A DNA stretch of 64,000 nt from Minisyncoccota bacterium (GCA_025453495.1 JALOQM010000001.1:90732-154731); one strand, 5' to 3'. Shown: positions 11,588 to 53,710, counted from the first letter of the stretch. Made by a program: numbers and translations. Notes: generated by a model not told the origin, from the letters alone.

Positions 11588-11650
11588 CCTAAAGTCGTGA
11601 GCATTACATAATCTGAAATATTGATTTAGCAATAAAAGTACTAACCACCA

Positions 11651-11685
11651 CAATCCCCGTCTGTTTTCATAGACGGGGATTTTTA
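11651..11685 (+). terminator. Rho-independent terminator
   Basis: aatccccgtctgttttcatagacggggattttt hairpin followed by a T-run. Confidence 0.6.
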
Positions 11686-11808
11686 AAATGAAAATATTCA
11701 ACGCTCTAGAATTGAGATAACAATTAATTGAAAGCAAAAAAAATCTGTAGAAGTTTTCAAAACCTAGTATATCTATCACAAAACACTCCCTTTATGGGGC
11801 GTTTTTTA

Positions 11809-18436: not shown

Positions 18437-18629
18437 GGGTTTATTTTATCTTATTTTTTAAGTGAAAACAGTATACAAGTGCTGATTTTGTCTGTCTAGT
18501 GATATATTGACAAAAATATTGTATATGCTATAATAAGCTCAGATTTAAATAAGCTCTTTGTATATAGAGTAACGGACTTATGCACCTGACGCATATTGAT
18601 GAACAACCTTAAATCAATCCAGACATACC

Positions 18630-19088
18630 ATGAAAACTACTCTCAAACTTTTCCTTTTTCTGATCCTCGCGATTGGAGCAACATCATGCTCATTGAACCA
18701 GAACAACAACGTGGCTGTTCCGATTCATACGACAATTTCTCCTGCTCTTGCAGGTCAAGTCTTTTTTATTGGAGACCCGGGTCATCCTGGAAACTACCCC
18801 GGCGCCTATTCACCCAACGGTCCAGGGATACTTGTTCCTGTAAGTTTTGATGGGTTTACAATAGCACCCATTACTAATTTTACATTCGGACCAGCTCTCC
18901 AGGGGTATACCACACACGAGAGCATAAAGACTGTTTACGACAATGCAGTCAATAACTATTTTCGGTTAAGCGGAGGGATTCGACCCATCGACGATGGGAT
19001 CAAAATTGTTATGAGAATAAATTTTGTACAAAATTCTCAAAACAATAATCAATTAAGTACTGCTATCGAATACTACTATACTCGGTAA
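18630..19088 (+). CDS. Secreted hypothetical protein (152 aa), possible lipoprotein
   Basis: Signal peptide with ...ILAIGATSC; downstream hairpin terminator aaaaacccctgtcaaacgacgggggttttc. Confidence 0.5.
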   Translation: MKTTLKLFLFLILAIGATSCSLNQNNNVAVPIHTTISPALAGQVFFIGDPGHPGNYPGAYSPNGPGILVPVSFDGFTIAPITNFTFGPALQGYTTHESIKTVYDNAVNNYFRLSGGIRPIDDGIKIVMRINFVQNSQNNNQLSTAIEYYYTR

Positions 19089-43239: not shown

Positions 43240-43587
43240 TTATTTTCTCAATTCTATAAGAGTATCTCTTAATTCATGTACTAAAAGATCATAACTTATT
43301 TTATGAGATCCTTTTTTAAAAAACAAAATACAGAACATGGGTTTTTTTGGCCATAACAGAGAAAGCTCTCGGAGGGCACTATATACTCTACGACGAAGAG
43401 TATTTCTAGAAACTGCTTTTTTTGCGATGGTTTTTGGGACAACAACAGCAAATGCAGTTTGTCTAGTTATTTTTTGTTCAGGTATTACAACACAAGAAAA
43501 AGCGAAAAAACGCTTGTGCAGCAAGCGGGTATTTCTCGTATTTCGGGGAAACTCAGAGCTCCGTATTCTGTTTTTTGACGGGAGCAT
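43240..43587 (-). CDS. rnpA: Ribonuclease P protein component
   Basis: Basic RNR-like motif SRNTLRRRVYSALRE; synteny. Confidence 0.8.
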   Translation of the reverse strand: MLPSKNRIRSSEFPRNTRNTRLLHKRFFAFSCVVIPEQKITRQTAFAVVVPKTIAKKAVSRNTLRRRVYSALRELSLLWPKKPMFCILFFKKGSHKISYDLLVHELRDTLIELRK

Positions 43588-49558: not shown

Positions 49559-50764
49559 ATGAAAAATACGCGCAAAGAGGGCGAAAAACTGTGGGCATTT
49601 CTGGAGAGGGGGGTTGCCTCTGTATATCCAAGCAAGGAATATGTCACCGCGCGTTTGCTGGAAGGCAAAAAACTAAAAGTGTATTTTGGTATAGATCCGA
49701 CCGGGCCAACATTGCATCTTGGCCATATGATTGGAATTAAAAAACTGGCTGAATTTCAAGAGCTTGGGCACTCTGTTGTTCTCCTCATCGGTGACTTTAC
49801 TGCGATGATTGGAGATCCGACGGACAAAGGAGCGACACGCAAACAACTTTCACGGAAGGAAATTCTCACAAACATGAAGCTGTATAAAAAACAGGCCTCG
49901 GCACTTCTGCGGTTTTCCGGAAAAAACAAGGCAGAGATCGCGTATAACTCAAAATGGCTCGGCAAAATGAAATTCGGAGATGTGCTTGATCTTGCATCAA
50001 AGATGACCGTTCAGCAAATGCTCGAACGCGATATGTTTGAGCGCCGAATAGAAGAGGGGAAGCCGATACATATACACGAGTTTCTCTATCCGCTCATGCA
50101 AGGATATGACTCGGTTGCCATGCAAATAGACGGAGAAATCGGCGGCAACGACCAGACATTTAATATGCTCGCCGGCAGAACACTTGAAAAACTTCTGCTT
50201 GATAAAGAAAAATTTGTCATTGCGACGAAGTTACTTGAAGACGCAACAGGCAAGAAGATGGGAAAAACCGAGGGCAATATGGTAAGCCTTATCGATACAC
50301 CAAAAGACATGTTTGGAAAGATAATGAGCTGGACCGACGGATTGATTATCCCAGCATTTGAACTGTGCACCATGGCAACAATGGAAGACATTGAAGCAAT
50401 CAAAGAGTCTTTGGTAAACGGTGCGAATCCGCGCGATGCCAAAGCGCGACTCGCCCGAGAGATTGTCTCCTTGTATCACGGAGAAAAAAAGGGAAAAGAA
50501 GCGGAAGACGCTTTCTTCCAGACGTTTCAGAGGGGAGAAGTGCCAACCGATATCCAGACTGAGAAAGCAAAAAAAGACGAGCAACTTGTCGCCGTATTGT
50601 TGCGCTTGGGGGTTGTTTCGTCAAAAAGTGAATGGCGGAGACTTGTAGAGGAGGGTGCAGTGACACATCTTGAAAGTGATACTAAAATAACTGATCCACA
50701 AGCGAGCCCTGAACTAGGAACCTACAAAATCGGCAAAAAACGCTTCCTAAAGATTACTAAATAA
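49559..50764 (+). CDS. tyrS: Tyrosine--tRNA ligase
   Basis: GIDPTGPTLHLGH (HIGH), KMGKTEGN (KMSKS), C-terminal S4-like domain; the upstream alternative start at 49493 would put the two divergent gene starts (tyrS 49493, PBP 49490) only a few nt apart. Confidence 0.85.
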   Translation: MKNTRKEGEKLWAFLERGVASVYPSKEYVTARLLEGKKLKVYFGIDPTGPTLHLGHMIGIKKLAEFQELGHSVVLLIGDFTAMIGDPTDKGATRKQLSRKEILTNMKLYKKQASALLRFSGKNKAEIAYNSKWLGKMKFGDVLDLASKMTVQQMLERDMFERRIEEGKPIHIHEFLYPLMQGYDSVAMQIDGEIGGNDQTFNMLAGRTLEKLLLDKEKFVIATKLLEDATGKKMGKTEGNMVSLIDTPKDMFGKIMSWTDGLIIPAFELCTMATMEDIEAIKESLVNGANPRDAKARLAREIVSLYHGEKKGKEAEDAFFQTFQRGEVPTDIQTEKAKKDEQLVAVLLRLGVVSSKSEWRRLVEEGAVTHLESDTKITDPQASPELGTYKIGKKRFLKITK

Positions 50765-50767
50765 TAA

Positions 50768-50797
50768 AACTCCCACAATGTGGGAGTTTTATTATTT
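50768..50797. terminator. Bidirectional rho-independent terminator
   Basis: aaaactcccacaatgtgggagtttta palindrome between tyrS and the acidic ORF. Confidence 0.6.
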
Positions 50798-51011
50798 AGT
50801 AGTTTTGGTCGGCGTCGCCTCCTATGAACTCTTCTTCCTCTTCCTCATCTTCATCATCAAGGTCGAAGTCTTCGTCTTCATCATCTTCGTCATCCATAGC
50901 GTCGTCATCTTCAGTCATATCATCTTCATCATCTTTGTCGTCTTCGCCATTATAACCAAGTACTTCCTCTTCTTCATCTCCTTTTGAATAATTTTCGTCG
51001 TCGTAACTCAT
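50796..51011 (-). CDS. Hyper-acidic small protein (71 aa, about two-thirds Asp/Glu)
   Basis: MSYDDENYSKGDEEEEVLGYNGEDDKDDEDD...; intact ORF bracketed by a terminator and an AT-rich upstream region. Confidence 0.45.
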   Translation of the reverse strand: MSYDDENYSKGDEEEEVLGYNGEDDKDDEDDMTEDDDAMDDEDDEDEDFDLDDEDEEEEEEFIGGDADQNY

Positions 51012-51173
51012 GTACTAATTTTTTTATCTAGTAATCGGTATATATGTAACAAAAACTTTTTCGCTTTGCAATGAAAAATTCAATTTTATGTGGATAACCC
51101 AGTAGGTCATTTTGTGAACCATATTGGCACTCAGAAGCATTGTTACAATCAACAGTAAAGTATCTACATTCGG

Positions 51174-51653
51174 CTATATACGATCGATTGCAAGCGAAGT
51201 GATGGCGATTGCAATTGCGTCCATTTCATCATCTGAATGCACTTTTTTGTCGAGTATTGCTAGTTTTTCAGTCATACGCATAACCTGTTGCTTGTCCGCG
51301 CCACCTGCGCCAGTTACTGCCACTTTTATCTGTATTGGGGTGTACTCAAAGATAGGAAGACCGACTTGCGCGGCGCTATACAGAATCACACCACGTGCTT
51401 CAGCTACCGCGATTGCAGTTTTTCGGTTCTTTTCCATAAAAAAGAGTGTTTCTGTGGCTAGCCGTTCAGGCGCGTACTCTCTTATAATTCGCGTGACTTC
51501 TGCGCCAACAAGAGCGAGACGTTCGGGATGGGGGAGTTTTGCACTTGTCTTAAAACAATCTGAATAGATAACATGCTCCTTTCCAGTGCCGTTTTTTTCG
51601 ACGATTGCAATTCCAAGGCGCTCATATCCAGGATCAATAGCAATGATTTTCAT
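51174..51653 (-). CDS. ruvC: Crossover junction endodeoxyribonuclease RuvC
   Basis: MKIIAIDPGYERLGIAIVE N-terminus with catalytic Asp; RNase H-like fold length. Confidence 0.9.
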   Translation of the reverse strand: MKIIAIDPGYERLGIAIVEKNGTGKEHVIYSDCFKTSAKLPHPERLALVGAEVTRIIREYAPERLATETLFFMEKNRKTAIAVAEARGVILYSAAQVGLPIFEYTPIQIKVAVTGAGGADKQQVMRMTEKLAILDKKVHSDDEMDAIAIAITSLAIDRI

Positions 51654-51740
51654 ACTGGTGTTTTTACAAGTAGTGTAGTTTACTATTTTTTAATACTTAT
51701 TTTTACTATACGCAAAATACCAGAAAGATCCAATTTTATT

Positions 51741-52045
51741 TTGACAATATATATAGGTTTATATATATTGTAGTTAGGGAAATACTTTGAAGAAAATAAT
51801 AAATGATTCCTTGGTACAGGGAATAGGACAAACCAGACCCTCTGGGATAGATTGATTGGAGAAATCCACAAAAAAATCGATGCTTCTGGGGTTGTAGGAC
51901 CTTAATGCAAGGCTCCTGAGTATGCTCTATGTTAGAACGTACGAAAGTATTAAGACTAACTTAGCAGAACCTGCGTGCTTGCAACACGCAATCCTAAACG
52001 AAGTTATTTCTCTTGCCTGCTCTTGTAGCAGGCTTTTTCTTTTTG
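51741..52045 (+). ncRNA. Candidate small RNA in the ruvC-ruvB gap: sigma70-like promoter, several stem-loops, strong terminator
   Basis: TTGACA (51741-51746), then 17 nt, then TATATT; terminal hairpin gcctgctcttgtagcaggc followed by tttttctttttg (about 52015-52045); no ORF over 62 aa; no gene on the plus strand upstream. Confidence 0.25.
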
Positions 52046-52064
52046 TAAGTATTGTTTTGTTTGA

Positions 52065-53093
52065 TTAACACTCATTCGAATCTTTATTTTCTGGATAATC
52101 AAAACCAAGATGGTCATAGGCTTTTTGGGTCGCAACGCGACCTTTTGCGGTGCGCTCGAGAAGTCCAAGTTGGATAAGATAGGGTTCAGTTACTTCTTCA
52201 ATTGTTGCCTCTTCTTCAGCAGTTGCTGCGGCAATAGTCTTGAGTCCCACTGGGCCGCCATCAAATTTATCGATAATTGTTTCGAGTACTTTTCGGTCAG
52301 ATGAGGAGAGACCAAGTTCGTCGATACCAAGTAGCGAGAGCGCTTCATGGACAGTTTTTTTTGATAAGGATTTTTTGTGGACTTGGGCAAAATCACGCAC
52401 TCTTTTTATAAGATAGTTTGCGGTACGTGGAGTGAAGCGACTTCGTCTAGCTATTTCCTCAAGCGCATCATCTTCGAGTGTATGTTCTGTGCCGAGAATA
52501 GAGAGTGATCTGCGAGCGATTTCCTTGATCTCTTCATCAGTATAAAATTCAAGACGAAATACACCACCAGAAAATCGCGATCGCAGTGGAGAAGAAAGAA
52601 GTGCAATCCTTGTGGTTGCTGCAACAAGCGTGAATGGTGGCAAATCAAGCTGGATAGTACGTGCTGATGGCCCTTTACCGATGATAATATCGAGTGAGCC
52701 GGATTCCATAGCAGGGTAGAGAATTTCTTCCACCATTTTATTGAGTCGATGAATCTCATCGATGAAGAGAATATCTCCTGGAGAGAGGTTTGTGAGTATT
52801 GATGCAAGGTCACCAACCTTCTCAATTGCGGGTCCAGAAGTGACTTTCATCTGTCGTCCAGTCTCGTGTGCAATCAAGTGGGCAAGGGTAGTTTTCCCCA
52901 GTCCAGGCGGTCCGTAAAAAAGGATATGTTCGGGTGGTTGATTGCGCCCTCGAGCAGCTTCCAAGAGGATGTGTAGATTATCCTTTATCTGTTTTTGACC
53001 AATATATTCAGCCCATTTCGAAGGTCTAAGCTTTGAATCAAGGAAAATGTCATCTTCTCTCTTTTCTTGTTTTTTTTGTGTTGGACTTGACAT
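52065..53093 (-). CDS. ruvB: Holliday junction branch-migration ATPase RuvB
   Basis: AAA+ Walker [12 protein letters not shown], Walker [12 protein letters not shown]-terminal winged-helix region. Confidence 0.9.
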
Positions 53094-53496
53094 AATAATT
53101 TAGTATGCTATACTTACTCACAGTAAATCCACAAAGTGACTTTTGTGAGTTACGAATCGTGATACAGTATACCACGTTGGTTCATTACATGAATTTTGAA
53201 ATAAAAGAGAATATGAATCTCTAAGCAATCAGGCTCCGGTCATAGGAGTCTAAAAAGGACGTCTTGGTTATTATTTATAATCTACTGGGGCTATCCTCTG
53301 AGGACTTCTTACTTTTGCGGTATAACTGCAAAAGGATTGTTTGGAGATTCATGCTCTTTTTAAAAAATGTATCAGAGTCGTATCGCGGACTTTGGTTGTA
53401 ATTAGGACAGCGATATATCGCTTGGTGTCAGGCTACCGACCTTGCGATGAAGAAGAGTAGCGTGTTTGATTGCGACCGTGGCAGTAGGCCTCGGTG

Positions 53497-53530
53497 TCCA
53501 AAAAGCGGTTCATTTCTGAACCGCTTTTCT
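53497..53530. terminator. Palindromic hairpin (bidirectional terminator-like) in the ruvB-pilB intergenic region
   Basis: aaaagcggttcatttctgaaccgctttt. Confidence 0.5.
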
Positions 53531-53582
53531 TTTTTATATATATTCCACCGATTCCGTTTCAAAATGTCTGGTTGGGCAAGTT

Positions 53583-53620
53583 TTGTAGTTTTTGCTTTTG
53601 CAAAAACTACAAAAGTGAAG
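53583..53620. repeat. Perfect 15-bp inverted repeat hairpin downstream of pilB
   Basis: ttttgtagtttttgc tttt gcaaaaactacaaaa. Confidence 0.5.
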
Positions 53621-53710
53621 CGACCCTGAGGGCTTTTGAAACAGAACGGTAGAAAAAAGAACACAGTATGTATGTTTGTCCTTAAATGATGAACGAGCGG
53701 AGCGAGGTAT

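Follow-up and report, generated by a model that had tools for sequence, protein, structure and literature searches.

A candidate orphan structured RNA at the ruvB–ruvC junction of an uncultured Paceibacterota-type bacterium, where most relatives carry yebC

What occupies the 410 nt between ruvB and ruvC at this locus, and is a gene missing from the site? The first-pass annotation took the interval for the place of a ruvA absent between ruvC and ruvB, and described in it, on the strand opposite to the two genes, a promoter, stem-loops and a terminator that together would bound a small RNA. The window, i.e., the whole 64-kb stretch of DNA analyzed here, is of the type of the uncultured Patescibacteria (CPR), Paceibacterota/Nomurabacteria: among the species representatives of GTDB, its RuvB finds best matches of 73–81% identity, which all belong to Paceibacterota, Nomurabacteria and other Patescibacteria MAGs. 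Proteins identical to both its RuvC and its RuvB are confined to the contigs of one population (JGI metagenome 3300037462, contig Ga0392395_0000052), and the same RuvC/RuvB-bearing organism is found in NCBI as 'Candidatus Pacebacteria bacterium'. Read along the minus strand, the locus consists of ruvB, a 410-nt spacer (51654–52064) and ruvC, in that order; the features discussed below are listed in Table 1. Beyond ruvC, a strongly acidic (D/E-rich) ORF of 71 aa, 50796–51011(-), is kept in position between ruvC and tyrS; it is 69% identical in the closest relative and has no Pfam family. A non-coding block 3' of ruvC, at 51034–51098 (core 51039–51072), shows 78–91% identity in three other relatives (L162, L163 and L164), and its minus strand resembles a promoter, TTGCAA-17-TACATA, for the acidic ORF downstream.

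Table 1. Features of the ruvB–ruvC spacer and its surroundings, in positions of the 64-kb window
Feature	Position	Strand	Remarks
ruvC	51174–51653	-	159 aa; downstream gene of the pair; Pfam RuvC 1.5e-37
AT-rich part of the spacer	51654–51740		GC about 20–27%; directly upstream of the ruvC start codon
Sigma70-like promoter TTGACA-17-TATATT	51741–51769	+	11/12 match; predicted start A51776 or G51777
AT-only inverted repeat ACAATATATATA/TATATATATTGT	51744–51771		perfect 12 bp, 4-nt loop
Candidate RNA body	51776–52013	+	238 nt, 40% GC; MFE and RNAalifold structures
48-aa ORF	51922–52068	+	called in the JGI annotation of source contig Ga0392395_0000052
Intrinsic terminator GCCTGCTCTTGTAGCAGGC + T-run	52015–52045	+	7-bp stem, 5 G-C pairs, 5-nt loop
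ruvB	52065–53093	-	342 aa; upstream gene of the pair; Pfam RuvB_N 1.1e-71, AAA_lid_4, RuvB_C
R1 promoter-like site	53087–53114	+	11/12; leader 53121–53202
R1, conserved structured RNA	53203–53365	+	about 160 nt; in the ORF-free gap 53094–53710 between pilB and ruvB

The canonical ruv layouts are ruvC-ruvA-ruvB operons and, in E. coli, yebC-ruvC plus ruvA-ruvB. For comparison, 80 loci were fetched through RuvB (GTDB genomes) and 80 through RuvC (metagenomes), together with five closer ones, and the junction was counted in the 108 loci that have both ruvB and ruvC. Since in the window ruvB lies upstream of ruvC, the ruvC-ruvA-ruvB operon, with its middle gene lost, is the wrong template for this site, and the expectation of ruvA between the two genes does not hold. 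The same order, on one strand, is found in 103 of these 108 loci. What most relatives carry there is a gene of the yebC/TACO1 family, assigned by Pfam, which encodes 175–196 aa (about 177) reading MSGHNKWAQIKHKK... and lies between ruvB and ruvC in 67/108 loci; the two genes are adjacent, with nothing between them, in 16/108, and separated by other inserts in 20/108. The YebC/TACO1 proteins of this clade have only 175–180 aa (e.g., L165:7037–7570 and L162:1612–2142), the usual bacterial YebC being of about 240 aa. The window and its relatives resemble the canonical layouts in linking ruvB and ruvC on one strand, and the relatives resemble E. coli in that yebC immediately precedes ruvC; they differ in the relatives' order, ruvB-(yebC)-ruvC, in having ruvA off the locus in Paceibacterota-type loci and, for the window, in lacking yebC.

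The search for ruvA itself agrees with this picture. By tblastn with E. coli RuvA, no ruvA was found in the neighbourhood of ruvB or ruvC in any of the Paceibacterota-type loci, among about 160 fetched, and nothing below E 0.5 was obtained in the gap or in the 64-kb window; Pfam scans of the window's mid-size ORFs returned no RuvA domain. The query was validated by its matches in five distant, non-Paceibacterota loci (L152–L156), in which it finds ruvA right after ruvC with E values of 1e-17 to 1e-24; in one of them (L156) the order is ruvC-ruvA-ruvB. With these positive controls, the suggestion that a ruvA might be recovered from the gap can be set aside: ruvA is unlinked to ruvB and ruvC in this clade, and the gene that is notably absent from the site is yebC.

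In Paceibacterota, the content of the ruvB–ruvC junction varies from locus to locus, which makes it a hot spot. Relatives without yebC have, at this place, small ORFs on the opposite strand preceded by good Shine-Dalgarno sites, and an opposite-strand terminator abutting the ruvB stop recurs there; because yebC-less relatives often carry such cassettes, opposite-strand units appear to be tolerated at this site. The cassette of the window is unlike those of the relatives in being devoid of an ORF. Among the individual junctions, that of L004 holds a pair of opposite-strand ORFs of 87 and 89 aa, the size of a toxin-antitoxin pair, and that of L076 a HIT-like gene, and GC-rich palindromic elements flank the inserts in L004, L023 and L076.

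The closest relative, L165 (Logan SRR31089965_4919, 84 kb), was found by a RuvB search of a large protein collection. It has the gene order of the window, but its ruvB, yebC (177 aa) and ruvC are separated by 4-nt spacers, from which we conclude that the tight operon is ancestral and the spacer new. At the protein level the window and this relative share 94% identity in RuvB, 89% in DnaN, 88% in PilB, 87% in TyrS and 84% in PBP, while at the nucleotide level identity is 76–82% on both flanks, absent across the gap and 65% across ruvC, the alignment ending at window position 52090, about 25 nt (some eight codons) before the ruvB stop. RuvC (51174–51653 vs L165:7575–8051) is 62% identical, about 20 points under the prediction from its neighbours (84–94%). 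As RuvC is discordant and homology breaks in the tail of ruvB, a recombination or HGT tract may extend over the ruvB tail, the spacer and ruvC. The divergence of RuvC from L165 may also reflect accelerated evolution, since between L165 and L162 RuvB is 88% and RuvC 65% identical, RuvC being fast-evolving throughout the clade. Judged from these alignments, the spacer is recent, lineage-specific DNA in the place of yebC, and on the simplest reading a single recombination or replacement event would have removed yebC, rewritten the last codons of ruvB and brought the spacer. The event possibly brought a foreign ruvC too, and the ruvC change alone may lie in the L165 lineage.

No donor of the spacer DNA was found. 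A repeat, MITE or mobile element was rejected, as the spacer lacks terminal inverted repeats and a target duplication and occurs only once in the window. A phage or plasmid origin was rejected as well, blastn against INPHARED and PLSDB having returned no match and IMG/VR no shared exact 28-mer. The idea that the gap is a remnant of the genes found at the relatives' junctions fared no better, tblastn of 994 spacer ORF fragments giving only noise.

As to the signals within the spacer, the elements that the first-pass annotation described are present. The plus-strand promoter matches the sigma70 consensus at 11 of 12 positions. Both strands of the 64 kb together have 4 sites of at least 11/12, where first-order Markov simulations predict about 1.7, so that the excess over chance is only modest; each of the four is intergenic, and those other than the present one stand before ORFs (9784- and 18507+) or the conserved RNA R1 described below (53087+). 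The sole perfect 12/12 site of the window, TTGACA-16-TATAAT at 18507–18534(+), sits upstream of a 152-aa ORF (18630–19088) for which Pfam has no family. The promoter spacer and the -10 box are covered by an AT-only palindrome, which had been overlooked before and which could be an operator or merely AT-rich palindromic DNA; since the promoter sits in DNA of this kind, promoter-like matches arise easily in it.

The plus-strand intrinsic terminator, described before as strong and ending at about 52045, is there as well and works in one direction only: its stem (52015–52033) is followed on the plus strand by the T-run TTTTTCTTTTT / TTTTTCTTTT, whereas on the minus strand it is trailed by AAGAGAAAT. 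Its end lies 20 nt short of the ruvB stop codon, and its orientation is convergent with ruvB. No upstream gene on the plus strand needs it, tyrS having its own terminator at 50757–50799. The promoter and the terminator lie in the same orientation about 270 nt apart, as would be required of an sRNA gene. For ruvC itself, the sigma70 match scan found no minus-strand promoter of at least 9/12 upstream, so this gene probably relies on read-through from ruvB.

The RNA delimited in this way would be closed by a helix of 14 bp, in which 51776–51789 pairs with 51999–52013, directly before the terminator. Within it are hairpins at 51806–51824, 51833–51845 (ccagaccctctgg) and 51973–51989 (gcgtgcttgcaacacgc), the last two being the internal stem-loops named earlier, and a branched 3' domain. 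The GC content of the body stands against 19–27% in the adjoining promoter region. For 51776–52045(+) the MFE is -75 kcal/mol, with a z of about -3.2 to -3.3 against shuffles, and the same 270 nt on the minus strand reach -2.6 to -3.1; when the terminator is left out (51776–52013), z is -3.6 on the plus and -1.7 on the minus strand. Most control segments of the window, intergenic or coding, fall between -1.5 and +0.7, with two other control spacers at -2.3 and -3.3, the one at 11588–11808 being similar to the candidate RNA. There is thus a strand-specific structure beyond composition, of the kind looked for in an sRNA gene, at a moderate z of about -3.3. The earlier reading of the spacer as a plus-strand candidate ncRNA of about 260 nt, bounded by a promoter and a terminator, fits both of these signals, the folding excess confined to the plus strand and the closing helix.

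Conservation tells otherwise. Neither blastn nor nhmmer found a homolog of the gap in 165 related loci or in the rest of the window. We built a covariance model of the candidate RNA (R2) from the single sequence (270 positions, 83 pairs, self-score 342 bits), and against 1.06 Mb of related DNA it gave at most 18.6 bits, on hairpin and terminator look-alikes of 50–130 nt. No genome sharing the spacer was found through RuvB (GTDB), through RuvC (JGI metagenomes), or through either protein in a set of 5.8 billion proteins and the contigs behind it. The first-pass annotation had counted a lack of conservation in relatives as evidence against its RNA, and neither a sequence nor a structure homolog exists among those compared. 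The claim of a structured ncRNA is therefore unsupported by comparative data; its intrinsic signals are better than chance and mutually consistent. Our search of the literature for the status of ruvA or for described structured RNAs in Patescibacteria found nothing relevant.

We tentatively favor an orphan structured RNA unit of about 240–270 nt that converges with ruvB, is antisense to the ruvB-to-ruvC read-through and would act by interference or antisense pairing, a reading that we regard as quite possible though somewhat short of probable. Young lineage-specific DNA would have replaced the yebC of an ancestral ruvB-yebC-ruvC operon and would carry a transcription unit on the opposite strand. 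Transcription would start at about 51776 from the promoter in the AT palindrome, the first 14 nt of the RNA would pair with 51999–52013 to close a branched structure of about 240 nt, and at the terminator, shortly before the ruvB stop is reached, a non-coding RNA of about 265 nt would be released. With ruvC expressed by read-through from ruvB across the spacer, the RNA and the convergent transcription would act in cis, by transcriptional interference and/or by pairing, as a perfect antisense, with the ruvB-ruvC mRNA between its two cistrons, and the outcome would be a ruvC expression uncoupled from, or dampened relative to, that of ruvB. What the analysis shows is the anatomy of the spacer, its plus-strand folding bias, that it codes for no protein, that it stands in the place of yebC and that it is confined to one lineage; we infer the transcription of the unit, the co-transcription of ruvB and ruvC and the cis-antisense action, the last of which presupposes that the two genes are indeed co-transcribed.

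The strongest rival holds that the spacer is a non-functional scar, that is, DNA left or imported by the event that removed yebC, in which the signals are products of AT-rich chance or relics of a decayed cassette, and any transcript is without selected function. We consider this somewhat unlikely, and much of what is described above is in keeping with it: the spacer occurs in one lineage only, with no homolog in the related loci or in the phage and plasmid collections; the junction is variable in relatives, with its 20/108 assorted inserts and 16/108 empty cases; the discordant RuvC (62% vs 84–94% in the neighbours) and the break of homology in the ruvB tail point to a recombination tract; and the promoter statistics are weakly above chance. 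It leaves unexplained, however, why the promoter, the terminator, the closing helix and the folding bias should agree in orientation and spacing, and why a terminator should be there at all, being purposeless without a plus-strand transcript. Moreover, with the flanks diverged by about 18–24% at the nucleotide level, unselected signals of such quality would be expected to have eroded.

It is also conceivable that the structure belongs to the minus strand, as an intercistronic element of the ruvB-ruvC mRNA serving in processing or stability, or as a spacer for the translational coupling of ruvC. That the whole 270 nt fold beyond their shuffles on the minus strand too, and that ruvC has no obvious promoter of its own would suit such an element. 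Nevertheless, we find it improbable, since removal of the terminator hairpin lowers the z of this strand to -1.7 and leaves the plus strand at -3.6, the promoter and the T-run are on the plus strand only, and the relatives make do with spacers of 4 nt.

A known RNA (6S, RNase P, SRP, tmRNA, a riboswitch or a T-box) so divergent that the Rfam models miss it is a very improbable explanation. At the gathering score, Rfam identified only five tRNAs in the whole window and no known family in the gap, where the first-pass annotation had proposed to look for one. At E<=10 the gap gave Trp_leader with 17.9 bits (GA 41), Hrs1 and rliA, weak matches for which the terminator or AT-rich sequence accounts in every case; ARAGORN found no tmRNA, and no RNase P RNA, SRP RNA, 6S RNA or tmRNA was detected within the 64-kb window by these two programs. 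RNAs of Patescibacteria can be divergent, which counts in favor of this explanation, and so does the presence in the window of rnpA, the gene for the RNase P protein, at 43240–43587(-) in the usual rnpA-yidC-jag cluster, given that the genome must encode an RNase P RNA somewhere. However, a housekeeping RNA would be conserved, and the candidate is found neither at the syntenic site nor in 1 Mb of related DNA. The idea of a paralog of the neighbouring R1 was likewise rejected: the R1 model gives only 8.6 bits in the gap, on the AT palindrome, against 152 at 53203–53365.

Still less credible is a small-protein gene in the form of the 48-aa ORF. As the first-pass annotation stated, no ORF of the 410-nt gap exceeds 62 aa, which our ORF scan confirmed, and the three frames of each strand are full of stops. 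In favor of the 48-aa ORF are its having been called by the JGI gene finder, its hydrophobic C-terminus and the occurrence at this site, in some relatives, of small opposite-strand ORFs with good Shine-Dalgarno sequences. The window's ORF has no good ribosome-binding site, though, and it crosses the terminator, with hairpin and T-run inside it and ahead of its stop, before running 4 nt into ruvB. It has no Pfam match, and among 1.84 billion representative proteins it found, besides itself, two marginal and non-convincing matches; its GC by codon position (0.41/0.35/0.35) is not that of the real genes (0.59/0.40/0.33). On the grounds of the homolog searches, Pfam, the codon-position GC and the internal terminator, we ruled this ORF out as a gene. 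Finally, a decayed ruvA or yebC pseudogene, which the presence of yebC in this slot in 67/108 related loci, the closest relative included, might suggest, is effectively refuted, because a YebC profile of 44 sequences (hmmsearch --max) gave a best E of about 1 in the six frames of the gap, tblastn with the 44 YebC proteins gave nothing in the gap or the 64-kb window, the RuvA search was equally empty, and the gap shows no homology with the yebC of L165 by blastn or MAFFT although the flanks are 76–82% identical.

On the other side of ruvB, the analysis brought to light a second RNA, R1, which has the conservation that the candidate RNA of the spacer lacks. It occurs at the same site in 80/80 of the loci selected through RuvB, in L162, L165 and L166 (further close relatives whose sequence reaches far enough upstream) and in 20 metagenome loci. 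In an alignment of 79 sequences, 49 pairs are supported and 23 of them show compensatory changes; paired cells amount to 96.8%, against 40–57% with the partners slid, and 0/500 shuffles reach the observed covariation. The strand is fixed by invariant G-U pairs. A closing helix of 26 bp, with its inner half invariant (AAUCUCUAAGCAAUC/GAUUGUUUAGAGAUU), is followed by a U-run. Searched with the R1 of the window and with those of 16 relatives, Rfam 15 gave no family, even at E<=10. The layout of R1, with a closing stem, a large junction, a terminal arm and a small 3' hairpin, may be loosely likened to that of 6S RNA. In the R1 promoter of L162 the hexamers and their spacing are kept, while the sequence between them has diverged.

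The candidate RNA of the ruvB–ruvC spacer resembles R1 in lying on the same strand, antisense to pilB-ruvB-ruvC, and in its promoter close to consensus, its long closing helix and its U-run; the difference is that R1 has 23 covarying pairs and occurs at the same site in over 100 loci, whereas the candidate occurs in the window only. A probable ruvB promoter, with the extended -10 box TGGTATACT at 53140–53165(-), appears conserved in L162, and since it lies inside the R1 leader, the R1 transcript would be antisense to the promoter and 5' UTR of ruvB. Between R1 and the pilB stop there are about 300 nt of extra non-coding DNA (53366–53710), absent from L165, in which R1 ends 48 nt from pilB. This stretch folds very strongly on both strands (z of -6.4 and -7.9) and holds a bidirectional terminator at 53500–53535 (A-run/stem/T-run) and a perfect 15-bp hairpin at 53581–53614; its GC-richer part, 53400–53499, might be another small RNA.

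With R1 taken into account, a bolder version of our preferred reading can be formulated, in which a newborn or imported antisense RNA gene ousted yebC and gates ruvC, so that together with R1 two opposing ncRNA genes would bracket ruvB; this we regard as doubtful. The nearest known analogs of the candidate would be the GadY-type antisense RNAs, which act on an intercistronic region and belong to the class with a sigma70 promoter and an intrinsic terminator. Like them, the candidate, at about 250 nt, has its own promoter, a Rho-independent terminator and paired 5' and 3' ends, and sits opposite the spacer of a two-gene transcript. Unlike them, it is a predicted RNA with no homologs and a proposed target, and it resides in a Patescibacteria host, a group in which, to our knowledge, such small RNAs have hardly been studied.

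If the preferred reading is true, the spacer would represent the datable birth of an sRNA gene at a defined site of a streamlined Patescibacteria genome, gained after the split from the relative with 94% RuvB identity and at the cost of a conserved yebC, and the expression of the resolvase RuvC could be rewired relative to that of RuvB. As the evidence stands, an annotation expectation has been corrected, in that yebC and not ruvA is the missing gene, and no new biology has been revealed. Of greater value is a by-product, R1, a widely conserved, covarying RNA of the Paceibacterota that lies outside Rfam 15.
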